A stretch of 64,000 nucleotides of DNA from Dehalococcoidia bacterium (GCA_965115825.1 OZ220464.1:705530-769529), one strand, 5' to 3'. Positions 7,472 to 58,660 are shown, counted from the stretch's first letter. Numbers and translations are program-made. The notes: generated by a model not told the origin, from the sequence alone.

Positions 7472-7828
7472 TGGTGGAGACGGGGGAGAGTCGCACTCCC
7501 CGTCCAGAAACTCCCCTGAGCGGATATGCTACAAGCTTGTTCGGCGCTTTGGTCTTGCTACTAGGGACTCCCGCCGACGGGATTCGTAAGCAGCCAGCCG
7601 ATAAAAGTCTGTGGCCTCGGTCATCGGCGTCGCCGAGGTAGCATCCCGGAATAATTGGACGTCCGCTTCCCGGCTTCCGGGCCTACCGGTGGCAGACGTA
7701 GCCGCGGTTAAGCGGCTAGAGCGAATTCACGTTCGCCAGTTAATTGTTCGCCACCGTTTTAGCGAGGGCAGCGGCAGCCTCGGCTTGCAATCCGTCAGAA
7801 AACGCTCCTGTCGAACCTACGCGTCCCC
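7472..7828 (-). ncRNA. ssrA: tmRNA (SsrA), one-piece, 357 nt
   Basis: On the minus strand the 5' end reads GGGGACGCGTAGGTTCGACAGGAGC and the 3' end reads GGGGAGTGCGACTCTCCCCCGTCTCCACCA. The acceptor stem GGGGACG/CGTCTCC contains the G3:U pair used by AlaRS. An internal tag frame, GGC GAA CGT GAA TTC GCT CTA GCC GCT TAA (GEREFALAA-stop), lies at 7708..7737. Confidence 0.9.
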
Positions 7829-16139: not shown

Positions 16140-16454
16140 TTAGTTGTTGGCGGCCATCATTTCGTCTTCGACGTCGAAGATGCGTTCGGCGATGACCATT
16201 TTGAGTTCGTTGACTTTGCTGTAGCCGGGGTATTCGTCGTTTTCCTCGTCGTAGCGGTCGAAGATCTTGGCGCTGTCGAGGTAGATTTCAAGGCGGCCCT
16301 TGTCGGCAGGGGTGAGTTTGACGGCAATGTCGCCGGCGTTTTGGGAACGCCAGAATTCGGTCGCCAGCCACGTGGCGAGGCCGTGGTAGCCTCAAGGGAC
16401 GCAATAGACGATGTCCACGGTGACTTTGCCGAACTCGGAACGGGTCATAGTCAT
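16140..16454 (-). CDS. SelW/Rdx-family selenoprotein candidate (in-frame TGA = Sec at codon 21)
   Basis: Not in the ORF track. The start is ATG 16454, with AGGAG 8-9 nt upstream. The frame is open to TAA 16140 except for TGA at 16392..16394. Translation gives ...VTVDIVYCVP-U-GYHGLATWLATEF..., which matches the SelW CxxU-GY redox motif. Confidence 0.8.
16363..16390 (-). promoter_or_regulatory. Candidate bacterial SECIS stem-loop for the SelW-like gene
   Basis: On the minus strand: GCUA-CCACG-GCCUCGCCA-CGUGG-(C)-UGGC, starting 4 nt after the UGA. The helix is imperfect with a 9-nt loop. Confidence 0.4.
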
Positions 16455-17013: not shown

Positions 17014-17420
17014 TTTTTGCCCAACTCCTCGGGTTTTTTAATCTGATAGGTGCGCATTTTTTCGATGAGGCGGCCGTCTTCGTCGGTGGCGGTGGCCTCG
17101 ATGACGAGGTAGGGTTTTTCGCGGCGGACGTATTTGTCGTGGATGCGTCCGGTGACGCGGATTTTCCTGCCGGGAAGGGGAGGGTTGTGGAGTTCGATTT
17201 CGTTGCCGGCGTTGATGCTGCCGGTCTGGTCGTCGTAGGCCAGGGCCAGGGAGGTGGCGTCGTGCTTAACGGCGATGGTGGGAAACACGGCATCGGGGTC
17301 GTCCACGGCCCGGCGGTAAAGGTCGACCATCTCCTGGGTCAGGAGGTATTCGTAGGAACCGAGTTCTTCGCCGATGGCGACTTCGTCGTAGAGGAACAGG
17401 GGGAGGTTTGGTTCGTCCAT
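16995..17420 (-). CDS. MaoC-N-terminal-type hotdog protein (partner subunit)
   Basis: Reads MDEPNLPLFLYDEVAIGEELGSYEYLLTQEMVDLYRRAV. It forms a HadAB-like pair with 16591..17013. ATG 17420 was chosen inside the longer ORF. Confidence 0.65.
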   Translation of the reverse strand: MDEPNLPLFLYDEVAIGEELGSYEYLLTQEMVDLYRRAVDDPDAVFPTIAVKHDATSLALAYDDQTGSINAGNEIELHNPPLPGRKIRVTGRIHDKYVRREKPYLVIEATATDEDGRLIEKMRTYQIKKPEELGKKWHPQG

Positions 17421-17506
17421 GGGGCACACTCGCTGGGGATTAGGGTAGGCGGGATTTACCATACCGCAGGCGGGGCCGGCAGTCAATGAATAGGGAAAGG
17501 GCTGCT

Positions 17507-18000
17507 TTGTCAGAATCAGGATTTACGGGATTTTGGGATTTACAGGATTGGGGTTGCGCTGTGGGGAGATTGCGGCTGCGTATCAGGTAGTAGGGCGGCG
17601 TTTCTTGTGGTGGGGTATTTGGGAGGGTGTGGTGTTTGTCAGAATCTGGATTTACGGGATTTTGGGATTTACAGGATAGGGGGTTGCGCTGTGGGGAGAT
17701 TGCAGCTGCGTATCAGGTAGGGGGTGGCGTTCTTTTGTGGGGGTATTGGGGAGGGTGTGGTGTTTGTCAGAATCCGGATTTACGGGATTTTGGGATTTAC
17801 AGGATGGGGGGTTGCGCTGTGGGGAGATTGCGGCTGCGTATCAGGTGGTAGGGTGGCGTTCTTTTGTGGGGGTATTGGGGAGGTTGTGGTGTTTGTCAGA
17901 ATCCGGATTTACGGGATTTTGGGATTTACAGGATAGGGGGTTGCGCTGTGGGGAGATTGCAGTCCTGTATCAGGTAGGGGGTGGCGTTTCTTGTAGCGGG
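17507..18000 (+). repeat. Tandem array, 4 x ~128 bp, each unit = 40-nt core + G-run-rich ~88 nt
   Basis: The TTTGTCAGAATC unit starts fall at 17507, 17635, 17763 and 17892 (periods 128, 128, 129). The cores lie at 17509..17548, 17638..17677, 17766..17805 and 17895..17934. The inter-core parts are also conserved between units. Confidence 0.95.
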
Positions 18001-18070
18001 ATGACGGTTAAACTCCGCGAAAATTGGGCGGAAGCGGGCGGTGGAGGTGGTACCAGGGTATTGCGAAGTA

Positions 18071-18079
18071 TGATATAAT
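18071..18079 (+). promoter_or_regulatory. Extended -10 promoter candidate (TGATATAAT)
   Basis: A perfect TGnTATAAT sits about 280 nt upstream of the surface-protein ATG. No other gene lies in between. Confidence 0.45.
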
Positions 18080-18084
18080 GAAGA

Positions 18085-18138
18085 CAGACAGCGCGCGCCA
18101 CAGACAGCGCGCGCCACAGACAGCGCGCGCCACAGACA
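18085..18138 (+). repeat. 16-bp tandem repeat CAGACAGCGCGCGCCA x3.4
   Basis: Exact copies at 18085-18100, 18101-18116 and 18117-18132, plus a partial CAGACA. The array begins about 6 nt downstream of the TATAAT. Confidence 0.95.
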
Positions 18139-21300: not shown

Positions 21301-21773
21301 TGCCGGTGCACTCCCGCATCGACCGGGTGGAAATCGGCGGGCGCGATGTGAAGCCCACTGGTGCGCCCAGCACCGACGGCGACGGCGCCGTTACCGTGGC
21401 GGGCGTCGTCTGTCCGGGTCTGGATGAAGGCCGGTACAGCGTGCTGCTGGAAGTTGAAGAGACCGTGGCCATCGGCGAGCTGGAAATCCTGTCTGAGGGC
21501 CCCTTGGGGCAAGAGACGCCGGTAGCCGAGGCATTGGCCCCGCTGGGGGACAGCCTGGCGGCGGTGTTCTACTTTGATGGCATCGGCAAGGAGTGGCTGT
21601 TTTACGACAGCCGTCCGGAGTTCGCCGAGCTGAACACGTTGACGGAGCTGGTGGCGGGTGAACCCTACTGGGTTCTGGTAACCGAGGACGTTGAGGACGT
21701 GGCCCTCGGCGGCAAGAGCCGCAGCCTGACGTGCAGCGCCGGCGGCAACTGCTGGAACCTGATGGTCTGGTAG
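18360..21773 (+). CDS. Large secreted surface protein with Fn3 and IPT/TIG-like Ig-fold repeats
   Basis: A GAGGAG RBS precedes ATG 18360. There is a signal peptide (MKAKVKRFKWSAPWAVAALAVVGALALFGVADLPNASVADA). Fn3 signatures are present (GLENGATYNVRVRV, VVWDPPADDGGSPVTSYKFE), followed by repeated beta-sandwich modules. Confidence 0.75.
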   Translation: MKAKVKRFKWSAPWAVAALAVVGALALFGVADLPNASVADAQADRCADGGAGFITAPTTAPAAPTVTVRNMAMAVDIAAPASNADATVLGSPEYTGFELEYRKGSSGAWMAFTGTITLNTRDLSGAALITGLENGATYNVRVRVTCGPGTGEWSAASGDATPAAAVPGKVRNLKAVQTFYTKAGDARFAADRFVISVVWDPPADDGGSPVTSYKFETFTGGTGNNIATSPTKYNALSSNTWKNASAAERGGDITDAGFNVSGGVFATNLWMRFKVAANNAVGTGAEDMVDLRLSADLEQKVEPTTEESTNATIVSDSTTSGAAPKLTVKLTNMYGGLPVGASVVLFLEDDFQVPESIPAGSVYFVANSPRTTDTGNGAPVFVTEPPEIETDDYFDDDKDDISIRVRLPDMCTGDSDACEGPNGLQGGQRLTMVILSSSGIRNPSEAGQHTVAYTLLGFNDDVPGTIGLTGGRIPRIRDANGMERSAASIAPKLPPRKGVYLATLAKISLSDVDGERGDEVTVTASGLNNGVTASAYVGQRMAARYAVAKWWETLDCDKMKAAMGPGAGQEFCFHYTLDTAAMTYTVAAKDKASSDKVFTRHLCEVGLVRNGTYVGSAIVGNDDKAAITFEVTVPTFKPGSDNLICVSDGEGRSSGGDYEDFELTPSIRVSPAEARAGNTITVFAQDFPTQGAGFMELKLAGEVFTGDVTATSISQDGSATATFELPPSVDDVVLRGTVRVDAKWGNKSEDAKITMVPTELNVSQPQAKPNEMVTMTCVGFGSGSGNAIMAENITLDEVPLKVHSDSLNSDGEVPVSSAGRCVFAVAIWPESDGGANPALTPGAHTIKVVDQNGYTGSVVITIPEPAVKVTPAVAGPRDVVTISGENWPVDNPDSTRLDAITITVTDGEREREYSQYADGTGRWFVEHQVSGAVSIPSTSRIEAKYSDLVRLGEYAVPASIITIEPEECQPGDSVMLTASRLPVHSRIDRVEIGGRDVKPTGAPSTDGDGAVTVAGVVCPGLDEGRYSVLLEVEETVAIGELEILSEGPLGQETPVAEALAPLGDSLAAVFYFDGIGKEWLFYDSRPEFAELNTLTELVAGEPYWVLVTEDVEDVALGGKSRSLTCSAGGNCWNLMVW

Positions 21774-21822
21774 AGGCCGGCGGCAAACCGCTGCGCTTAC
21801 CCGATGGTTGGGAAAGCGGCGA

Positions 21823-21862
21823 CGGCAGGGGCGGGTCTGCGGGCCTGCCCCTGCCGCTTTTA
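21823..21862 (+). terminator. Candidate intrinsic terminator after the surface-protein gene
   Basis: Stem CGGCAGGGGC / GCCCCTGCCG (21823-21832 / 21847-21856), followed by CTTTTA. Confidence 0.5.
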
Positions 21863-22201
21863 CGGTACAAGGACGCCGCCTCTCCCGGTTATGCTTCTAT
21901 ATCGGAATGGTAAGCACGGAAGCCCCGAGGCGCTTGCAAAACGCTCTTTTCCGCCGCTTGCATCTCAACGGTACACGACGTCCGATGCTCTGCTGTGCAG
22001 CAATCATCGGCTTGACCCGTCTTGCCCGATGATTGCCACGCCGTTTTGCAAGCGCCTCTCATTGTAGGATCGTGCAAAAATAAGCAACGCCCAAGGCGGG
22101 CAGCAATCAGGAGACGAATTCCGCCGCCTATGGTTGCGCCACGTAAATCGTGTAGACTGTCGCCAAAGAACAGCTTTCAATCGAAACCAAAAGGAGAAAC
22201 C

Positions 22202-22816
22202 ATGGGCAAAAAGTCACGGCGCCCCGGACGCCGCAACCGTGACACCAAAGGCGGAGCATTCGGCAGCAATGCGAATATCAGCAGACGCAGGGAATGCCAG
22301 CATCCTGAATACTTCGGCAATCCGGAACGCTGTTGCATTTGCGGCGGAGTAGTAGCCACTTGCGCCTGCGACTACCAGAAGGCAATGGCACATCTGGAAA
22401 CCTGCCACTCTGGTATCCCAATACCAGCGGTATCTGAAGCCGCATCAGTTCGTCAAACCGCAACCGGAGAGCCGTGCCCAAACGGGCACCCGGAGCAGGC
22501 GCAAGCGTGGATGCTCCACAGAACACCGCCGACGCGATGTGAAAGATGCGGCGAAACACCTACGTTCGGAGGGTACGCAATGAGCGCCAGCTTCGCTCCG
22601 GAAGCCAACTACGGACTACCGGAACACGCGACCAGGCAGTGGGTTGAGGAACATTCCGAACCTGACGAATTTGGCGCCGTGCCGATACCGGCCAGCTACG
22701 GGGACGGCCTATTTACCCATGCCACCTACGAGCCGGATTGCGACCACTTCAGGGAAGACTGTAATTGCGCAACAGACGTCTCCGTAATGTGGACGCTGGC
22801 AGAGTACAGCGGATAG
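22202..22816 (+). CDS. Cys-rich hypothetical protein (orphan)
   Basis: AAAGGAGAAACC precedes ATG 22202. The protein is 204 aa with a basic N-terminus and about 14 Cys in CxxC / CxC-like clusters (CCICGGVVATCAC, CERCGE, CDHFREDCNC). It lies in an AT-richer islet. Confidence 0.5.
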   Translation: MGKKSRRPGRRNRDTKGGAFGSNANISRRRECQHPEYFGNPERCCICGGVVATCACDYQKAMAHLETCHSGIPIPAVSEAASVRQTATGEPCPNGHPEQAQAWMLHRTPPTRCERCGETPTFGGYAMSASFAPEANYGLPEHATRQWVEEHSEPDEFGAVPIPASYGDGLFTHATYEPDCDHFREDCNCATDVSVMWTLAEYSG

Positions 22817-22828
22817 GCACAAAGCCGA

Positions 22829-23806
22829 CTACGCTACCCGCAGCATCCCGTTTAGAGCAGCCTTCGGTCCACGCCGTGTCATCCGCGCCAGCGCCATGGC
22901 GACGAACATAACCACCGCCAACAGGAAATGAAGGCTTACCCTTGCCTCGCCCCGGCAGGTGTGGTTCTCAACCCACCCGCTTTCAAACCACCAACTGAAG
23001 AACCGCTCTACTGCCCAGCGCTTCGGATAAATACGATTCCAGTCTGGCGATGCACGGCTGATGCGCCCGCCCAAAGTGTAGGGATCATCGTCAAAGGACT
23101 CCCATACCTCATCGTCACAAACCGAGTACCCTTTGAACGGCTCCCGCCGGCGATGGCAGCCGCCTGCGAGGCAACGGAACCCGTGTAACCCAGCCGACAA
23201 ATCGGTGCCTATGAACTTCATTGCTTTTCCGCCCAGGCAAACCGGCTCGCCATTCAGAGTATGGATGTTTGACTTGGAACGATTGCGCCGGGCGATGCGT
23301 GGTATGACTGGCGCCGCGCCCAAATCGTGGATTGCCTTAACGTTCTCCCGACCTTCTTAGCCGATAAAGGCTACGACGGTCGCAGGTTCAAACCAATCGT
23401 AGTTCTCCTTGCACCATGAAAGCAGCTTACGGAGAAAAGGCGAGTCGTTCTCGTTTGCTGGCGAAACATCGCAGGCTATCGGCAACCCAGTGTGAGCATC
23501 CACTACGGCATGGACCTTCCAGCCATAGATCCAGACCGTCCCGTCGGGTTCCTTGGAACGCGGGTCGTGAACCTTGCCCCAGGCAGCTCCCTGGTCCCGC
23601 GTCTTATCGTTATGCGGTGTGCGCAGCGCTCGGGTAGGTATCCGTAAATCTTGAAGTGCGCCGTAATGTGATGTTTCCGGCGAAGTGTTCGCCTTTGTGG
23701 CACCCTGCGGTGAAGCATGGGCCGAAGAGCTTACAACCTGTAAGCCGTTTTGGCCTCTGATGCCGGCCTGCTGGCCCGCCGAGGCATGATCAGCGAGATG
23801 GCCATC
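22829..23806 (-). pseudogene. Decayed DDE transposase (IS4/IS5-like, DDE_Tnp_1 type)
   Basis: A single minus-strand frame reads ...DGTVWIYGWKVHAVVDAHTGLPIACDVSPANENDSPFLRKLL...FEPATVVAFIG-stop-EGRENVKAIHDLGAAPVIP...YPKRWAVERFF.... There is no start codon. A TAA stop at 23357..23359 sits where the ADxGYD motif should be. Confidence 0.75.
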
Positions 23807-23991
23807 TCACTGAATAGCGCGACGATATTGGCGCAGGTTGTGTAGTATAGACTACCTACGCCAAAAAGAATAAGGTGCGATTACGTAATTCGTCACGTAG
23901 CTGGAGCTTTTCTGCAATCGGCTGATGGAATCGCGAGTAGCGAAATCGCCTCGGCTACTAGCGCCAATCGTATCAAACGCACACGGATGAT

Positions 23992-24573
23992 ATGATGACA
24001 ACCGTTGTCCCCCTCCGCAAAAACCGGCCCTGGCTGTGGATAGCCGGCATCGTAGCGGCGTTGGCCGTCCTGGCGGTAGCGTTCTACATACTCACAACCC
24101 CCGACACGCCCAGCCAGGCAGGAGAACGGTACATTGAAGACCACTACGACGCGCTGGCCGAAGCCGCTGTCAAGGCTGCCCTCCTCGACATCCCAATCAT
24201 GGCCGAGATTCTCGCCGAAGTTGTCGAGTCCGCCGCAGAGCGTATCGTTCCGTACACTTGCCGCGCCCCGGAAGCCGGCGATCTGACCGAAATTGACGTG
24301 CGCTGCACCTTGTTGTTCGGCGCTGACGCGCCGCTCAACCTCAAGATTATCGCCCCATTCACGCTCACTATCGACCTGACCGGCAGCGATATGTTCGGCA
24401 GAACCGTGCCGGACGTAACCGGCGCCGATCTAATTAAGTCTGAGGTAGAAGTAAGCGGCCTGAACCTGGAACATCTGCGTCAGGTGAGAGACGCGCTCGT
24501 TGACCAAGCCGGAGACGCCTTGGACCAGATCCAGCAAACCGGCGACGGCATCAAAAACCTCCTCGACCGCTGA
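23992..24573 (+). CDS. Hypothetical membrane-anchored protein
   Basis: 193 aa. It has one N-terminal TM segment (WLWIAGIVAALAVLAVAFYIL) and an acidic soluble domain. I recognise no family. Confidence 0.45.
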   Translation: MMTTVVPLRKNRPWLWIAGIVAALAVLAVAFYILTTPDTPSQAGERYIEDHYDALAEAAVKAALLDIPIMAEILAEVVESAAERIVPYTCRAPEAGDLTEIDVRCTLLFGADAPLNLKIIAPFTLTIDLTGSDMFGRTVPDVTGADLIKSEVEVSGLNLEHLRQVRDALVDQAGDALDQIQQTGDGIKNLLDR

Positions 24574-37136: not shown

Positions 37137-38060
37137 ATGGAATCGCCCCGCACACACACCGTCACCGGAGCAACTGGCTACACCGGACGTTACATAACCG
37201 ACCTTCTGCTCCGGCAGGGTTATCGCGTACAGTCCATCACCGGGCATCCCGAACGCTCTAATCCCTTCGCCGACCGTGTTCCTCTGCATCCTTTCAATTT
37301 CGACCGCCCCGACCTGCTGGAAGAGACCCTCGCCGGCACCGATACCCTGTTCAACACTTACTGGATCCGCGTCAACTATCGAGGTCGCACCCACCAGCAG
37401 TGCGTTGAGCAAACCCGGGTGATGTTTCAGGCCGCCCGGGCGGCCGGCGTCCGTCGCATCGTGCACATCAGCATCACCAACCCAGACCCTCAATCCCCCT
37501 TGCCGTATTTCCGAGGCAAAGGCCAATTGGAAGACTCCTTACGCGATTTGGGCGTCTCCTACGCCATCCTGCGCCCTACTGTTCTGTACAGCTCCGAGGA
37601 CATCCTGCTCAATAACATCGCATGGACGCTGCGCCGGTTCCCCTTGACGCTCCTGCCCGGCAAAGGCGATTACCCCATTCAGCCCATCTTCGTCGCAGAC
37701 CTGGCCCAGCTGGCCGTAGCCGCCGCTGAAGACGACCGGAACACCGAAATCGACGCTGTCGGCCCCGAGGTTTTCACCTACGCCGAGATGGTCAAGACCG
37801 TGCGAGACAAGATAGGCGCCAATTGTCTGGTGCTCCCCTCGCCCAAGCCCCTGACCTACCTGGCCGGCCGCCTCTTGGGCCTCTTTGTCAACGACATAGT
37901 GCTCACCAACGACGAGATAAAGGGCCTTTCTGCCGGACTGCTGGTGTCCCGCTCCGGCGCCGAGCCGCCCGGCAAAACCAGGTTGACCGAGTGGCTGGAC
38001 CAGCACGGCGCGGCGCTCGGCCGCCGCTATGCCTCCGAAATACGGAGACATTACCAGTAG
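37137..38060 (+). CDS. NAD(P)-binding NmrA/atypical-SDR-like protein
   Basis: Rossmann motif VTGATGYTGRYI. An AGGAGGTG RBS lies upstream. Confidence 0.7.
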   Translation: MESPRTHTVTGATGYTGRYITDLLLRQGYRVQSITGHPERSNPFADRVPLHPFNFDRPDLLEETLAGTDTLFNTYWIRVNYRGRTHQQCVEQTRVMFQAARAAGVRRIVHISITNPDPQSPLPYFRGKGQLEDSLRDLGVSYAILRPTVLYSSEDILLNNIAWTLRRFPLTLLPGKGDYPIQPIFVADLAQLAVAAAEDDRNTEIDAVGPEVFTYAEMVKTVRDKIGANCLVLPSPKPLTYLAGRLLGLFVNDIVLTNDEIKGLSAGLLVSRSGAEPPGKTRLTEWLDQHGAALGRRYASEIRRHYQ

Positions 38061-38129: not shown

Positions 38130-39185
38130 GTGACGAGCCATTCAGCGGTTGACCAAACCCTGCGCGCCGCGGTGCATCCCTACCCAGATACGCTCGACGC
38201 CATCGAGGAGTGCTACCGCCGCGGCTGGACCGACGGTCTCCCCGTCGTACCGCCCACCGCCGATCGGGTGCAGACCATGCTGGACGCCGTCGGCCTGGCC
38301 CCCGATGCCCTCCTCGGCGAAGTTCCGGTGCGACGACGCGCCCTCACTGCCGAGCAAGCCGCCGCCAACACCGTCATGGCCGGCTGTCTCCCCGCCTACT
38401 TCCCCATTGTCCTCGCCATCCTCCGGATACTCTTTGAACACGACCCCAACTGCATCCATGAAGTCTCCGCCGTCACCAACTCCACCGGCCTCCTCACCAT
38501 CGTCAACGGCCCGATACGACGTGAAATTGAACTCAACTGCGCCGACAACCTGTTCAGCCCCGGCCATCGCGCCAACTCTACCATTGGCCGGGCTCTGCGC
38601 CTCATCTTCATCAACGTTTTTGAACAGCGGCCCGGCGTCCTCGACCGGGGTTGCATGGGCAGCCTCACTAAGTTCGGCGTCGTCATTGGCGAGGACGAGG
38701 AAAACAGCCCCTGGGAACCTTTCCACGTCAGCGCCGGCTTCCCCCCGGAGCAATCCACCGTTACCGTCGCCACCATCCAGGACCCCTCAATGCACGGCAA
38801 CCGTTACGGCGCCACGGCGGAAAGCCTCCTGGACTCCATCGCCGACGGCATGGCTTCCCACGGCCTGGGCATCTACTTCGGACGCGGCATAAAATGGGTC
38901 TGGATCGTCGGACACTGGCATTCCGAGCTGCTCGGCCGTCTGGGCTGGACTCGGCGCGATATGCAGGAATACCTCCACGAGCGAGCCTGGCGCTCCACCG
39001 GCCAGCTCAAACGCCTCGGTATGCTGAACGGTTCCGTTCAGCCCGGCGACGATGAGGAAAAACGTATGACCGTAGACAGCCCGGACGACATCCTCATCAT
39101 CAAAGCCGGCGGCGACAGCGGCATTTACAGCGAACTTATTATGAACTACTACGGCGTCCCTGCCGTTACTGCCGCAATCACGTAA
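38130..39185 (+). CDS. Conserved hypothetical protein (upstream neighbour of the UxxC selenoprotein candidate)
   Basis: 351 aa. A GTG start follows AGGAG. I recognise no family. Notable blocks are WTDGLPVVPPT and HRANSTIGRALRL. Confidence 0.5.
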   Translation: MTSHSAVDQTLRAAVHPYPDTLDAIEECYRRGWTDGLPVVPPTADRVQTMLDAVGLAPDALLGEVPVRRRALTAEQAAANTVMAGCLPAYFPIVLAILRILFEHDPNCIHEVSAVTNSTGLLTIVNGPIRREIELNCADNLFSPGHRANSTIGRALRLIFINVFEQRPGVLDRGCMGSLTKFGVVIGEDEENSPWEPFHVSAGFPPEQSTVTVATIQDPSMHGNRYGATAESLLDSIADGMASHGLGIYFGRGIKWVWIVGHWHSELLGRLGWTRRDMQEYLHERAWRSTGQLKRLGMLNGSVQPGDDEEKRMTVDSPDDILIIKAGGDSGIYSELIMNYYGVPAVTAAIT

Positions 39186-39215
39186 CACCGTTAGACCCAG
39201 CGTAAGGAGATCGTT

Positions 39216-39779
39216 ATGCCCGCCGCCAGCGCCCCTGTCGTCCAGCTCATCGACCCCACCGGCTTTGACCCCGGCGCGACTCCTCTCATTATGGCCCCCC
39301 GGCCCGTTGACCTTCGCGGCGGGCGGCTCGGCCTGCTGGACAACTCCAAGGCCAATTCCGATGCCATCCTGTGGGCCATCGCCCACGCCCTCGACGAAGA
39401 GTTTGAGTTTGCGGACATCTTTTATGTCCGCAAGCACAACGCCTCTTTGCCGCCTCATCCCCAAGTCTTGGCCGACCTGCATCGCAACGCAGACTTCGTA
39501 ATCGCCGGCGTGGGTGATTGAGGCGGTTGTTCGTCGGGCAGTTTGCACGACGGAATTACCTTGGAGCGGCAGGGGATCCCGGCGGCCGCCATTATTACCA
39601 ACGTGTTCGCCAACACCGCCCGCGCCTACACCAGACTGATGGGCGTCCCCGATTTCCCCTACCTGATGTGTCCGCACCCCATTACCAACGTCGCCGCCGA
39701 GGGCCTGCAAGACCGGGCCCAACTGCTCGCTCCTGACGTCCGCCGTCTGCTCATCAACGGCGCTCTGACCAATAGTTAG
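39216..39779 (+). CDS. UxxC (UGSC-like) selenoprotein candidate, in-frame TGA = Sec at codon 102
   Basis: ORFs 39216..39521 and 39543..39779 are in the same frame and are separated only by TGA 39519..39521. Read through, the sequence is ...FVIAGVGD-U-GGCSSGSLHDGITLERQGIPAAAIITNVF.... A TAAGGAG RBS precedes the start. Confidence 0.7.
39530..39554 (+). promoter_or_regulatory. Candidate bacterial SECIS stem-loop for the UxxC gene
   Basis: UUCGUCG / CGACGGA stem (7 bp including one G-U pair). It is extended by GCA/UGC around an apical GUU loop. It starts 9 nt after the UGA. Confidence 0.45.
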
Positions 39780-39792
39780 CCCCGACGTCTCC

Positions 39793-41985
39793 ATGCCAGG
39801 CTTGGGCGACATATTCCGACGCATTACCCGCCGCTCCCGCCGGGAGCAAGAGCCGGACAGCGCCCCCGATTCAACAGAACTCCCAACCGACGAAGCTCCT
39901 GACGCCGAACCCGACCAACCCTTGCCTGCCTCGTCAGCCGCCGCCGAACCCCCACTGTCAGCCGCTGCCGAACCCCCACCGTCAGCCGCTGCCGAGCCCC
40001 CACTGTCAACCGCCGCCGAACCCACACTGTCAGCTGCCGCCGAACTCACACTGTCAACCGCCGCCGAACCCCCACTGTCAGCCGCTGCCGAGCCCCCACT
40101 GTCAACCGCCGCCGAACCCCCACTGTCAACCGCTGCCGAACCCCCACTGTCAGCCGCTGCCGAACCCCCACTGTCAGCCGCTGCCGAACCCCCACCGTCA
40201 GCCGCTGCCGAACCCCCACCGTCAGCCGCTGCCGAACCCCCACTGTCAACCGCTGCCGAACCCCCACTGTCAGCTGCTACTGACCCCCTACCGCCAATCA
40301 CTACTGACCCCCCGCCTTCAGCCGCTGCCGAATCCGCGCCACCAATCGCTCGCGAACTTCCGCTGTCGGAGGCCGCCGCCGTACCCCAACCGTCTCCGCC
40401 CGTCCCCGAGTACACTCCACTCCGCGAGCCTGCCGGCGTCTTTGCTTCGGAGCCGGCCGGCCCAGTTATTGCGGAACCATCGCCGCCGCTGCCACCCTCT
40501 CCCGTCTCTGCTCCGTCCTCCTCTCCTAACGATGAGTTGCGCGAAGACCACCTGTTGCTGGACTGCCCCTATTGCGGCCTGACCGAACAGCGCATGGGAG
40601 CCCGATGTGATAATTGCGGTCAGGTGGTGGTGCGTCTCCCCTCCTGGGCCCAACATCGCCGTCGCAATTGGCTCCTGGAGCGATTGGCTTGGCGTCGTAT
40701 CATCGCGGCCTGCGCCATCGTTCTGTTCGTTCTGTTCGTGGTCTGGATTAACTATCCTTTCGTGCCCAATCCGGTGATTTTCTTCAAAAATGTCCAGACC
40801 AATACGACCGCCGATGACGGCCCCGGCGTCTGGTCAATCAGTGGCCGCGACCTGCGCAACACGCGGTTCGTTTCCGTAGGCTATCCCCCCCCGGTGGGCA
40901 CTATTGTCTGGAATACCAACATCCCTGAGCCCCTCAAATCCGAGCCGGTATCTCAGGATTCCAATATCTACCTCGGCTCCGCCAACGGTATCTTTCTTAT
41001 TGGGGTCAATAACCCCAATCCGGAAGAAGACGGTAAAATCCGCGCCGGCTGGGAAGGAGAAACCCCCGGACGAATCACCGCCGCCGCTGCCGTGGTCGAT
41101 TCCCACCTCTTCTTCGGCAGTACCGACAAAACCGTCAACGCCTGGAACGCCCGCACTGGAAACCCCGAATGGACATTTCCCGCCGAAGATACCGTCGAAG
41201 TTCCCCCCGTCATCGTCAACGGTATGGTCTATATCGCCTCTGGCCTGGGTTGGCTCTACGCCCTTGACGCCCAAAGTGGCTCCCTCATTTGGAAAGTTCA
41301 GCTGAATAGCAACGCCAGCGGAGCGGTCGCCGTGTACGAAGGAAGATTGATGGTTGGCGACCAGGATGGCGTTTTCCACGTACTGTCCACCCGCACTGGC
41401 CAGGAGCGGTTCCGCTTCCGCACTCCCCGAGCTATCCAGGGATCCCCCGTAATCTCCGAAGATGGCCAGCGCGCTTTCTTCGCTTCCTCGGGCCAGCTTT
41501 ATTCGGTACGCGCAGACCGTAGGGAATTCCCCGGCCTCTACCAGTTCAAGCAGGTTTGGGCCCAACTCTGGCTCTGGCAAGTCCCCGGCGTCCCACGCCC
41601 GCAGGGGCAGCAGGGCGGGCTGTGGCGATTCAGCCCCAATAACCCCTTGCGCGGCATTCATAGCGCTCCCGCCCTCGCCAACGACCTCGGTCAGGAATCC
41701 CTCTACGTCGGCGGCCACGACCGCATGATGTACTCCCTGAACGCCGCCGACGGTTCTGTACTTTGGGCTTTCCAAGCGGAAAACGCCATTCTCGCTTCCC
41801 CTCTGATAGTAAAAGACCGTCTCATCTTCGGGGATGCCAGCGGCTACCTTTATTCCCTCCACCGCGAAGACGGCTCCGTTGACTGGAAGATCTTCATGGG
41901 ATCCAGCATCGCCATTCCGCCCATTCTCAGCAATGACCTGCTCATAGTCCGCACTGTATCCGGGGATATTTTCGGCATCAAATAA
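39793..41985 (+). CDS. Membrane protein: Pro/Ala repeat region, zinc ribbon, TM segment, PQQ-like beta-propeller
   Basis: The N-terminus carries (AAEPP[LP]S[AT])n repeats. The zinc ribbon is CPYCGL...CDNCGQ. The TM segment is IIAACAIVLFVLFVVWI. The C-terminal ~430 aa have repeated propeller blades (DGSVLWAF, SGSLIWKV, DGSVDWKI). Confidence 0.7.
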   Translation: MPGLGDIFRRITRRSRREQEPDSAPDSTELPTDEAPDAEPDQPLPASSAAAEPPLSAAAEPPPSAAAEPPLSTAAEPTLSAAAELTLSTAAEPPLSAAAEPPLSTAAEPPLSTAAEPPLSAAAEPPLSAAAEPPPSAAAEPPPSAAAEPPLSTAAEPPLSAATDPLPPITTDPPPSAAAESAPPIARELPLSEAAAVPQPSPPVPEYTPLREPAGVFASEPAGPVIAEPSPPLPPSPVSAPSSSPNDELREDHLLLDCPYCGLTEQRMGARCDNCGQVVVRLPSWAQHRRRNWLLERLAWRRIIAACAIVLFVLFVVWINYPFVPNPVIFFKNVQTNTTADDGPGVWSISGRDLRNTRFVSVGYPPPVGTIVWNTNIPEPLKSEPVSQDSNIYLGSANGIFLIGVNNPNPEEDGKIRAGWEGETPGRITAAAAVVDSHLFFGSTDKTVNAWNARTGNPEWTFPAEDTVEVPPVIVNGMVYIASGLGWLYALDAQSGSLIWKVQLNSNASGAVAVYEGRLMVGDQDGVFHVLSTRTGQERFRFRTPRAIQGSPVISEDGQRAFFASSGQLYSVRADRREFPGLYQFKQVWAQLWLWQVPGVPRPQGQQGGLWRFSPNNPLRGIHSAPALANDLGQESLYVGGHDRMMYSLNAADGSVLWAFQAENAILASPLIVKDRLIFGDASGYLYSLHREDGSVDWKIFMGSSIAIPPILSNDLLIVRTVSGDIFGIK
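39937..40272 (+). repeat. 24-bp tandem repeat x14 inside the CDS
   Basis: GCCGCYGCCGAACCCCCACYGTCA units run head to tail. Degenerate copies flank them out to about 40345. Confidence 0.9.
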
Positions 41986-57489: not shown

Positions 57490-57701
57490 CCCGCCTGACC
57501 CACAAATCCCGTACCCTGCAAACCAACCCTACGCTAACGGACTCTCGACATACTCCTCGCTTCCCAATCGCAAGGGTGGGGCTACTCAGTCCCGCCCTTG
57601 CGATTTATATGCCCGCCCTACACCTGACGATGCCCGGTCATACCCACACCTAACGCCGCCACTCCCACGCCCATCATTCCGGCGAAAGCCGGAACCTGGC
57701 G

Positions 57702-57990
57702 CCCCATACACGCCCCGGGCCCGCAACCTACATCCCCAATGCGAACCCCCCAATCCTGCCCATCCTAAAATCCCGTAAATCCTGATTCTGACAACAACCC
57801 CATACACGCCCCGGGCCCGCAACCACACCCCCATAGCGAACCCCCCAATCCTGCCCATCCTAAAATCCCATAAATCCTGATTCTGACAACAACCCCATAC
57901 ACGCCCCGGGCCCGCAACCACACCCCCATAGCGAACCCCCCAATCCTGCCCATCCTAAAATCCTGTAAATCCCAATTCAGACCATCCTCA
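57702..57990 (-). repeat. Tandem array, 3 x ~95 bp, core repeat in reverse orientation
   Basis: Units start at 57702, 57798 and 57893. Cores (ATCCTAAAATCCCGTAAATCCTGATTCTGAC) lie at 57762..57793, 57857..57887 and 57952..57982, the last one degenerate. Confidence 0.9.
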
Positions 57991-58660
57991 CCGCCAACCC
58001 CCATCCACCACTCCAACGCCCCAACCTACCCAATCCTGAAAATCCCAAAATCCCGTAAATCCTGATTCTGACAAATTGATGACATCCAACGCTTGCGAAG
58101 CCGTACGCCAGTACTTTACCCTATCCACGTCAGGCTCATCCGCCGGCCCCGCGCGAACCGTCGGATACCCGTCCCTGGCCAGGACAACTGCCCGACACCA
58201 CAACTGAATAGGAGTCTCACGGGGTTCAGGACATCACGGTCTAATCCGCCGCATCCGTACTGTGCGGCATGTCGGATCCATTGCACCACTGTGGTGCGCC
58301 GGAGGTCGGTCACATTACCCGGCTGGCGCACCCAGCACGGCGGGCGTCACCACCGCTGCGCGAGGACGGGCACTGCGCAAGCAGCCGTTAGCACGCGCAA
58401 GACTAGGACGTAAATAGCAAGCACGCTCTCAGGCCGTAGCGCCGACATCCTGAACCCCCAGGAACCCAACCAGAATCCACCGACCGACCAAAAGGAGAGA
58501 AACAACCAACATGAACACCGTCAACCCCAACTCCACTACCCGCGCCCCTCCCCACCGGCCGCCCCCAAAGGGGTGGCCATCGGTAGGTTGGCCACCACCA
58601 AAGCCCCCGGAACCGGGTTCCCATTCTCACCGTAGTAGCGGATTAGCAACTGCGAGGTGA
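57952..58660 (-). repeat. Composite intergenic repeat, copy B (inverted partner of 7867..8442)
   Basis: The full 40-nt core lies at 58033..58073. Positions 58380..58630 are near-identical to the reverse complement of 7900..8130. Copy B carries ~165 extra nt (about 58210..58375) relative to copy A. Confidence 0.85.

Follow-up and report, generated by a model that had tools for sequence, protein, structure and literature searches.

A selenocysteine-decoded UGSC-family gene in a Dehalococcoidia bacterium, its near-obligate partner gene, and a tentative reductase function

Does a single in-frame TGA in the genome of a Dehalococcoidia bacterium terminate one small gene upstream of another, or is it read as selenocysteine (Sec) within one continuous gene? 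The question is raised by a DNA stretch of 64,000 nucleotides (GCA_965115825.1 OZ220464.1:705530-769529; hereafter the window), in which a first-pass annotation had proposed a recoded gene with a U-x-x-C redox pair, followed by a hairpin resembling a selenocysteine insertion sequence (SECIS). Re-derivation of the coordinates confirmed that the open reading frames (ORFs) 39216..39521 and 39543..39779 are in the same frame, with starts offset by 327 = 3 x 109, and that the only in-frame stop between them is the TGA at 39519-39521. The read-through product is a protein of 187 aa, with Sec at position 102 and termination at TAG 39777-39779. Its sequence reads ...NADFVIAGVGD-U-GGC-SSGSLHDGITLERQGIP..., and the motif stretch is GVGD-U-GGC-SSGSLHDG. 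We conclude that this is almost certainly a Sec-decoded gene of the UGSC family with a functional SECIS. To the overall explanation, which combines Sec decoding via the SECIS with a two-protein module and a proposed reaction cycle, we assign a probability of about 85%.

The window protein was scored against family models with U replaced by C. It exceeded the cutoffs of both the NCBIfam equivalog model NF041046 (UGSC_fam; 127 bits versus 125, residues 35-179 aligned to model positions 2-146 of 147) and Pfam PF24696 (176 bits versus 25), which shows that the name 'UGSC family (seleno)protein', proposed in the first-pass annotation, was correct. Residues D101, G103, C105, S106, S107 and G108 were invariant in alignments A3 and A4, and the U/C-G-x-C motif after G[VI]GD is present as GVGD-U-GGC-SSGS. 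The protein also agrees with the family in length and in the alternation of Sec and Cys, and differs in nothing essential; its motif is U-G-G-C, whereas that of the family is U-G-S-C. In the large stand-alone branch of the family, U/CxxC is invariant.

The family, called 'UGSC-containing protein' in the literature (Zhang and Gladyshev), has been known since 2007-2008. It was described in 2007 as 'a selenoprotein of unknown function' (PMC1976440) and is one of the leading selenoprotein families by abundance in the Global Ocean Sampling data, where 255 Sec forms were counted versus 21 Cys forms (PMC2398784). The latter study regarded the protein as 'likely' thioredoxin-like and sometimes fused to a domain named 'Unknown_1' (PMC2398784), and a review from 2026 still lists UGSC among the functionally uncharacterised families (PMC13188914). 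Since the family is already known, the gene in the window is a further member of it, and its novelty is modest. Its recognition is routine in that NCBI and Pfam models name it, while gene callers that are blind to Sec split it. What the literature has not provided for nearly 20 years, despite the abundance of the family in aquatic samples, is an assigned function.

The TGA column was compared across 80 genome loci from Dehalococcoidia/SAR202, Binatia and Entotheonella, one locus from ENA, and 80 further diverse loci from a metagenome scan (37-91% identity to the query homolog P0174). All 82 genome sequences, window included, carry TGA at this column, and the metagenome loci carry TGA or TGC/TGT. 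Of all fetched loci, 152 have TGA here, from several phyla, and 17 have TGC or TGT. Full-length homologs (P0012 and others from the profile search) read GVGD-C-G[AS]C and are single continuous proteins, in line with the earlier expectation that Cys or Sec would be conserved here. Most close homologs in the protein databases are fragments of 101-132 aa that end at ...G[VI]GD, as 13 of the first 16 matches do precisely. Homologs ending at the TGA had been named in advance as a possible refutation, but these fragments arise because gene callers stop at the TGA. Codon differences relative to the window had the same synonymous to non-synonymous ratio on both sides of the TGA (2515:1590 upstream, 1975:1278 downstream), and therefore the downstream part is translated in the same frame.

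These data bear directly on the reading that the TGA is a true stop, separating two short genes (for 101 and 78 aa) or inactivating a single one. Gene callers do annotate the locus in this manner, the databases are full of 101-aa fragments, and the machinery for Sec synthesis and insertion was not found in the window. However, the continuous Cys-form homologs, the retention of TGA in so many loci and the purifying selection downstream of the TGA, equal to that upstream, all contradict it. The TTG at 39543, where the second ORF would begin, has no Shine-Dalgarno sequence and lies inside the hairpin; the ATG at 39216 is preceded by a strong Shine-Dalgarno sequence 6 nt 5' of the start codon. In addition, RNA-level constraint on the codons following the TGA is seen in TGA forms only, as described below. 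On these comparative data we regard a true stop as effectively refuted, with only a very slight probability left to it.

A genome-wide reassignment of TGA to Trp or Gly (code 4 or 25) is a second alternative to Sec, and homolog P0174 does have W at this position, presumably because its gene was called under code 4. Against it, TGA normally terminates 16 of the 45 long ORFs in the window, which makes the recoding site-specific and excludes reassignment throughout the genome. The homologs carry Cys at the column, not Trp or Gly. A scan of the window for in-frame TGAs whose two flanks both have coding signal gave four matches, of which only two look real, both within selenoprotein motifs. The organism groups with Dehalococcoidia/SAR202, which are not known for TGA reassignment. 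The probability of this alternative is negligible.

The second credible in-frame TGA (16392-16394) lies in a gene on the minus strand (16140-16454) encoding a Rdx/SelW-like protein of 104 aa with a CxxU motif (C-V-P-U) in the context ...VDIVYCVP-U-GYHGLA..., that is, MTMTRSEFGKVTVDIVYCVP-U-GYHGLATWLATEF. A fragment of 41 aa around the motif exceeded the Pfam cutoff for Rdx (23.8 bits versus 22.6), and a GC-rich hairpin lies directly 3' of the UGA. As the first-pass annotation numbered the UGSC gene as the second recoded gene, this is presumably its first. Given this second selenoprotein gene and the conservation of TGA in 82 of 82 related genome sequences, we infer that the Sec machinery is encoded elsewhere in the genome. 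A selB gene adjoining the Sec-form UGSC locus in Paracoccus lends this indirect support. Apart from this gene, a search for SelB over all fetched loci and the window found none beside any Sec form.

The hairpin 3' of the UGA in the UGSC gene was found as it had first been described, with a lower stem of 7 bp (UUCGUCG, 39530-39536, and CGACGGA, 39548-39554), an upper stem of GCA (39538-39540) and UGC (39544-39546), and an apical loop GUU at 39541-39543. The two stems are separated by a G39537/A39547 mismatch, and the stem begins at the ninth nucleotide after the UGA. The hairpin is the centroid structure of the region, has an energy of -10.8 kcal/mol when folded alone, and contains a conserved core at 39534-39550 (UCGGGCA-GUU-UGCACGA). 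Bacterial SECIS (bSECIS) elements are constrained to a loop of 3-9 nt with G in the first two loop positions, a spacing of 16-37 nt between UGA and loop, and a minimum free energy of -7.5 kcal/mol or lower (PMC13188914). The earlier comparison with bSECIS models thus held for the loop (3 nt, GUU), the spacing (19 nt) and the energy. Like the bSECISearch consensus and the fdhF SECIS of E. coli, the element is a hairpin in the coding sequence soon after the UGA, with a small loop beginning G-U, a 19-nt spacing and an energy below -7.5 kcal/mol. It differs from them in the triloop, in the stem interrupted by G.A, and in a core that is unusually invariant across phyla.

Codon usage provided the comparative evidence. 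In 80 distinct Sec-form genes, synonymous codon entropy was zero at codons +4 to +7, +9 and -1 relative to the UGA and did not exceed 0.38 bits at +8, +10 and +11, as compared to an average of 1.41 bits at the remaining four- and sixfold degenerate codons that are conserved. Only 15 of 632 comparisons at codons +4 to +11 differed from the window, versus approximately 0.61 differences per codon in the remaining downstream half. The core, as UCGGGCA-GUK-UGCWCGA, was kept even in soil Sec forms of only 40-50% protein identity. By contrast, the 17 Cys-form loci encode the identical peptide CSSGS[VL]LDG with varied codons (TCG/TCC/TCT/TCA, GGC/GGT/GGA and AGT/AGC/TCG/ACC) and formed no common hairpin. 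With the Cys forms as an internal control, codons that are free in these and frozen in Sec forms show a constraint on the RNA that is tied to the UGA. Judging from these alignments, the hairpin is under RNA-level selection specific to UGA forms. The contrast in codon usage between Sec and Cys forms is a clean way to validate bacterial SECIS elements without covariation.

The variation that does occur among Sec forms is compatible with the hairpin and consists of changes in the lower stem, of U, G or C as the third loop base, of a replacement of the G.A mismatch by G-U, and of one G-C pair changed to G-U. In the Paracoccus Sec form, which has the peptide N-U-GSCTSWSVHDC, a hairpin with loop GUG forms in the same register; one C-G pair is swapped to G-C in a compensatory manner, and a U-A pair takes the place of the G.A mismatch. 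As a separate observation, the Asp codon preceding the UGA (39516-39518, codon -1) is GAT in 80 of 80 close Sec forms and never GAC, whereas more distant soil Sec forms often have GAC. This may reflect a local context effect on UGA decoding.

Does the UGSC protein act with another protein? The first-pass annotation had suggested the product of the gene immediately upstream, a protein of 351 aa of no recognisable family, as a functional partner. We found no match to it in Pfam or NCBIfam, and a weak match to AllG (PF06545; E 0.15) was rejected as noise, recurring in only 2 of 38 members. The family is nevertheless large, with 5,783 clusters at 50% identity in an exhaustive search at E<=1e-3 (1,279 at E<=1e-30) and 5,806 proteins at E<=1e-3 among 8,000 candidates examined. 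Among 32 diverse members, Cys86 in an AGC motif was invariant in all 32, and D35-G36-x-P38, R147-A148-N149, G153-R154, D172, E188, W195 and H264 were invariant or nearly so, whereas Cys28 was not conserved.

The pairing of the two genes was conserved, with few exceptions, whether loci were selected by UGSC or by the partner. The partner gene lies directly upstream on the same strand in 81 of 81 genome loci selected by UGSC, and it is adjacent in all metagenome loci with room for it except L138. One clade has the inverted order, UGSC followed by the partner, and the partner there is 40% identical (E 2e-77). In the reverse test, plasmids and chromids of cultured organisms were searched with the partner protein, and UGSC was adjacent or fused in 12 of 13 partner-selected loci, the exception being Haladaptatus. 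These loci come from Arthrobacter, Roseovarius, Paracoccus (two), Variovorax (two), Acidovorax, Embleya, Sporomusa and Vibrio among the bacteria and from Natrinema and Halorientalis among the haloarchaea. In Paracoccus ferrooxidans pFER4 (L174 4402-6059) and P. versutus pTAV4 (L181), a Sec-form UGSC gene precedes the partner gene; its annotation divides it at the TGA into two small hypothetical proteins. The suggestion of a partner was thus borne out by adjacency, by both gene orders and by fusions. On the evidence of gene order, the 351-aa protein is a near-obligate partner of UGSC in bacteria and haloarchaea, and the two probably constitute one functional unit.

Single-chain fusions of partner and UGSC with an intact CGSC motif were found in Variovorax boronicumulans (WP_319362312) and in protein P0282. 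Two further fusion-type ORFs, P0287 and P0298, start within the C-terminal half of UGSC and are probably Sec-containing fusions. Other fusions lack both redox residues: those of Sporomusa termitida pSPTER (L171 4362-6086) and Vibrio europaeus pVEu (L173 4323-6008), both of which read GD-M-GT-S, and protein P0295. The fused members without redox residues retain Cys86 and the invariant DN[ST]K loop of UGSC. The L171 and L173 fusions adjoin genes for aconitase X and DUF126, and in Vibrio also for an enolase homolog; fusions of this type possibly represent a non-redox branch of the family. Four candidate fusions (L115, L125, L128 and L133), in which the tblastn matches are only 3 nt apart, were rejected, as the genes abut in different frames. 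In view of the partner-UGSC fusions, the 'Unknown_1' domain of PMC2398784 is probably the partner family.

Further arrangements were observed in the same families. An additional domain of approximately 90 aa with the motif A-A-C-x-D-C is located C-terminal to UGSC in Arthrobacter (L169 6000-6815, 271 aa) and N-terminal to the partner in protein P0257, and protein P0252 (713 aa) is a tandem partner-partner fusion. In the haloarchaeon Halorientalis (L176 3319-5981), two partner paralogs flank the UGSC gene, and haloarchaeal loci of this kind often contain genes for DUF6282, CoA-transferase and CoA-ester-lyase proteins.

AlphaFold2 models were used to assess the folds of both proteins. The model of the UGSC homolog P0174 (mean predicted local distance difference test score, pLDDT, 82.7) contains five strands alternating with helices in a flavodoxin-like arrangement. 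Strand 3 comprises residues 94-100, the position of U is 102, helix 3 begins at 103, and Cys105 is located within its first turn, which agrees with the earlier placement of U-x-x-C at the end of a beta-strand. The Foldseek matches in PDB were flavodoxin, azoreductase, lumazine synthase, REC and TIR structures, with a template modelling (TM) score of about 0.4, and no thioredoxin-fold protein was present among the 50 PDB matches listed. The mixed sheet in the order beta-alpha-beta-alpha-beta-beta-alpha with CxxC, characteristic of thioredoxin folds, is not seen in the model. The predicted UGSC fold is generically flavodoxin-like and not thioredoxin-like, and the thioredoxin-like fold suggested in the literature is not supported by it. 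With thioredoxin-fold selenoproteins (SelW/Rdx-like, peroxiredoxin-like and thioredoxin-like), UGSC shares a redox pair at a strand-helix junction and the interchange of Sec and Cys, but its model is a parallel five-stranded flavodoxin-like sandwich.

The partner model (mean pLDDT 84.6) had as its best Foldseek match the class I (Fe-S) fumarate hydratase alpha subunit (7xky_A, E 7e-4, probability 0.92), which at a TM-score of 0.30-0.35 gives a weak hint and does not classify the protein. Fumarate hydratase is likewise a two-subunit, carboxylate-acting enzyme, but the partner has one invariant Cys instead of a three-Cys cluster, and there is no sequence signal between them. Searches of PDB with the partner profile and with both the sequence and the profile of UGSC returned only noise (E>0.1), including designed TIM barrels, an O-methyltransferase and a cyclohexanone monooxygenase, all of which were rejected.

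These models also bear on the reading, assumed in the literature, that UGSC is a stand-alone thioredoxin-like thiol or selenol oxidoreductase, with the 351-aa neighbor as a bystander or substrate. The UxxC motif at the N-terminus of a helix and the trxB neighbor in some loci would fit such a protein. The flavodoxin-like model and the lack of thioredoxin-fold proteins among the listed matches do not, and since the pairing survives inversion of gene order, occurs in bacteria as well as archaea and extends to covalent fusions, a bystander role for the neighbor is unexpected. We consider the stand-alone reading improbable.

We propose instead that the two proteins form a module with a division of labor. 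The UGA would be read as Sec, and the hairpin would act as the SECIS, presumably recruiting SelB with Sec-tRNA(Sec). UGSC would be the small, redox-active subunit and the 351-aa protein the large subunit. Beside Sec102 and Cys105 one would expect the invariant DN[ST]K loop that follows strand 1, by flavodoxin-like analogy and not by measurement on the model. In the large subunit, Arg147 and Arg154 are candidates for binding an anionic substrate, and Cys86 would work together with Sec102 on a small compound, perhaps a carboxylate. Cys105 would then resolve the intermediate to give a Sec102-Cys105 selenenylsulfide, which thioredoxin and thioredoxin reductase would reduce again. We infer the formation of the complex, the roles of the residues, the dependence on thioredoxin in this organism and the type of substrate.

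The thioredoxin step is suggested by gene neighborhoods. The order is trxB-trxA-partner-UGSC in Arthrobacter and partner-UGSC-trxB in Roseovarius; in Variovorax SRS16, trxB lies within the partner/UGSC cluster, and a TrxB-like gene is located nearby in V. boronicumulans and in the soil contigs L129 and L137. In total, trxB or trxA is linked to the module in six loci from four lineages, all of them Cys forms. The Arthrobacter order resembles the operons of glycine and D-proline reductases (GrdA/GrdB, PrdB). These multi-subunit reductases of small amino-acid substrates use as nucleophile a Sec with a Cys nearby (UxxC or CxxU), and their operons also encode the thioredoxin and thioredoxin reductase that reduce the resulting selenenylsulfide. 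The analogy is mechanistic only: no pyruvoyl proprotein subunit is present here, the partner belongs to an unrelated, unnamed family without a Pfam match, which places the pair outside the GRDB/pyruvoyl-partner systems, and the organisms with UGSC are mostly aerobes and not Stickland fermenters. Pfam reports PF24696 alone for UGSC, with no similarity to PF07355 (GRDB) at E<=1.

We hold the thioredoxin-dependent reductase mechanism to be tentative, with chances somewhat short of even. The broader proposal is put forward with slightly greater reserve, namely that UGSC and its partner could be a widespread, uncharacterised reductase core, in two subunits or a single chain, which is recycled by thioredoxin and reduces a small anionic metabolite in bacteria and haloarchaea. 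If true, it would define a new class of reductases, analogous but unrelated to glycine and proline reductases, and would assign a function to a selenoprotein family that ranks among the commonest in aquatic environments. The partner link, the flavodoxin-like model, the Sec form in cultured Paracoccus and the clustering of trxB or trxA with Cys forms from cultured Arthrobacter, Roseovarius and Variovorax make the function experimentally tractable.

Several results count against the overall explanation or parts of it. With regard to Sec decoding, selA, selB, selD and tRNA-Sec were not found within the window, which contained no tRNA and no SelB-like match at all, and the 80 genome loci, at 65-86% identity, are closely related and therefore not independent. 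With regard to the hairpin, the fold energy of the single sequence was no better than that of shuffled sequences (71 nt, z = 0.18), so that the evidence must come from comparison and not from thermodynamics. The core is so invariant that there is almost no covariation, and the lone compensatory swap comes from one lineage. The part of the bSECIS comparison that did not hold is the upper stem, with 3 bp before the G.A mismatch versus 4 uninterrupted bp in the consensus; the window stem (3 bp, the mismatch and 6-7 bp) agrees only if a mismatch is allowed, and most family members have 10 uninterrupted bp. A search of Rfam over 39450-39650 at E<=10 gave no match to the hairpin, which means that no curated model covers it. 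With regard to the module, the UGSC model was built on P0174, a 60%-identical homolog, and not on the window protein, and the partner model has no convincing PDB relative, the root-mean-square deviation of its best match being 13.5 A. The fusions without both redox residues suggest that the module can function without U/CxxC chemistry. Finally, a search for TrxB over all fetched loci and the window found none beside any Sec form.

The last two points fit a non-reductase reading, in which UGSC would mainly serve structure or ligand binding within an enzyme that uses Cys86 for non-redox chemistry, such as an isomerase, lyase or hydratase, or would carry sulfur, selenium or metal, with Sec/Cys as the ligand or as the site of a persulfide or perselenide. 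The redox-dead fusions in question keep Cys86 and DN[ST]K and occur beside aconitase X/DUF126 and enolase genes. The Paracoccus locus, where DsrE, TusA and cysteine desulfurase are encoded upstream and selB 3 kb downstream, points the same way. Against this reading stand the invariance of U/CxxC in the large stand-alone branch, the trxB/trxA linkage in four lineages, and the fact that Sec in place of Cys is a usual mark of redox catalysis. An earlier study also ties such replacement to redox catalysis (PMC1794560). On balance we consider a non-reductase function unlikely.

The features of the locus are listed in Table 1.

Table 1. Positions of the UGSC gene, its signals and the two upstream genes in the window
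Feature	Position	Strand	Basis
NmrA/epimerase-like NAD(P)-binding protein	37137..38060	+	Pfam NAD_binding_10, Epimerase, NmrA
Partner gene, 351 aa, unnamed family	38130..39185	+	no Pfam/NCBIfam match; adjacent in 81/81 genome loci
Shine-Dalgarno sequence AAGGAG	39204..39209	+	read from sequence
UGSC-family selenoprotein gene	39216..39779	+	NF041046 127 bits, PF24696 176 bits; equal synonymous:non-synonymous ratio in both halves
UGA codon for selenocysteine U102	39519..39521	+	column TGA in 152 related loci, TGC/TGT in 17
Codon of Cys105, proposed resolving Cys of U-G-G-C	39528..39530	+	invariant across family alignments
Bacterial SECIS hairpin	39530..39554	+	centroid fold; codon constraint in Sec forms; compensatory swap in Paracoccus

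Clustering of neighbors across the UGSC loci revealed no universal third gene. Other genes near UGSC and its partner encode TctC, TRAP, ABC and MFS transporters (for carboxylates or amino acids), LysR regulators, CoA-transferases and short-chain dehydrogenase/reductase (SDR) or NmrA-type proteins. The NmrA/epimerase-like gene in the window is of uncertain membership in the unit; SDR or NAD(P)-binding neighbors recur in some other loci, and in the close relative L001 other genes take its place. Genes for a pyrroloquinoline quinone (PQQ) beta-propeller and an oligopeptide ABC transporter are conserved near UGSC among close relatives only, and an alpha/beta hydrolase and a TPR protein recur in one soil clade only.

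Just downstream of the UGSC gene in the window is a gene for a PQQ/BamB-like beta-propeller protein of 730 aa. A 24-nt tandem repeat at 39933-40332 (+; 16.7 copies, 87% matches) encodes (A-A-E-P-P-L/P-S-A/T)n within its N-terminal region, and the antisense of this repeat gives a long spurious ORF at 38787..40415. Elsewhere in the window, a transfer-messenger RNA gene at 7472-7828 (-) was identified at full length by Rfam RF00023 (120.6 bits), and was not reported by ARAGORN. Two gene-poor stretches, at approximately 17400-18100 and 57500-58400, share intergenic repeats that translate as ...SESGFTGFWDLQD... in one frame and ...KSQNPVNPDSDK... on the other strand; these elements look like a dispersed family of short repeats. 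In the gene-poor gap at 21773-24500, two consecutive ORFs at approximately 22830-23850 (-) contain RWAVERFFSWW, which we take to be typical of IS4/IS5 DDE transposases, and are probably the remnant of a frameshifted insertion sequence.

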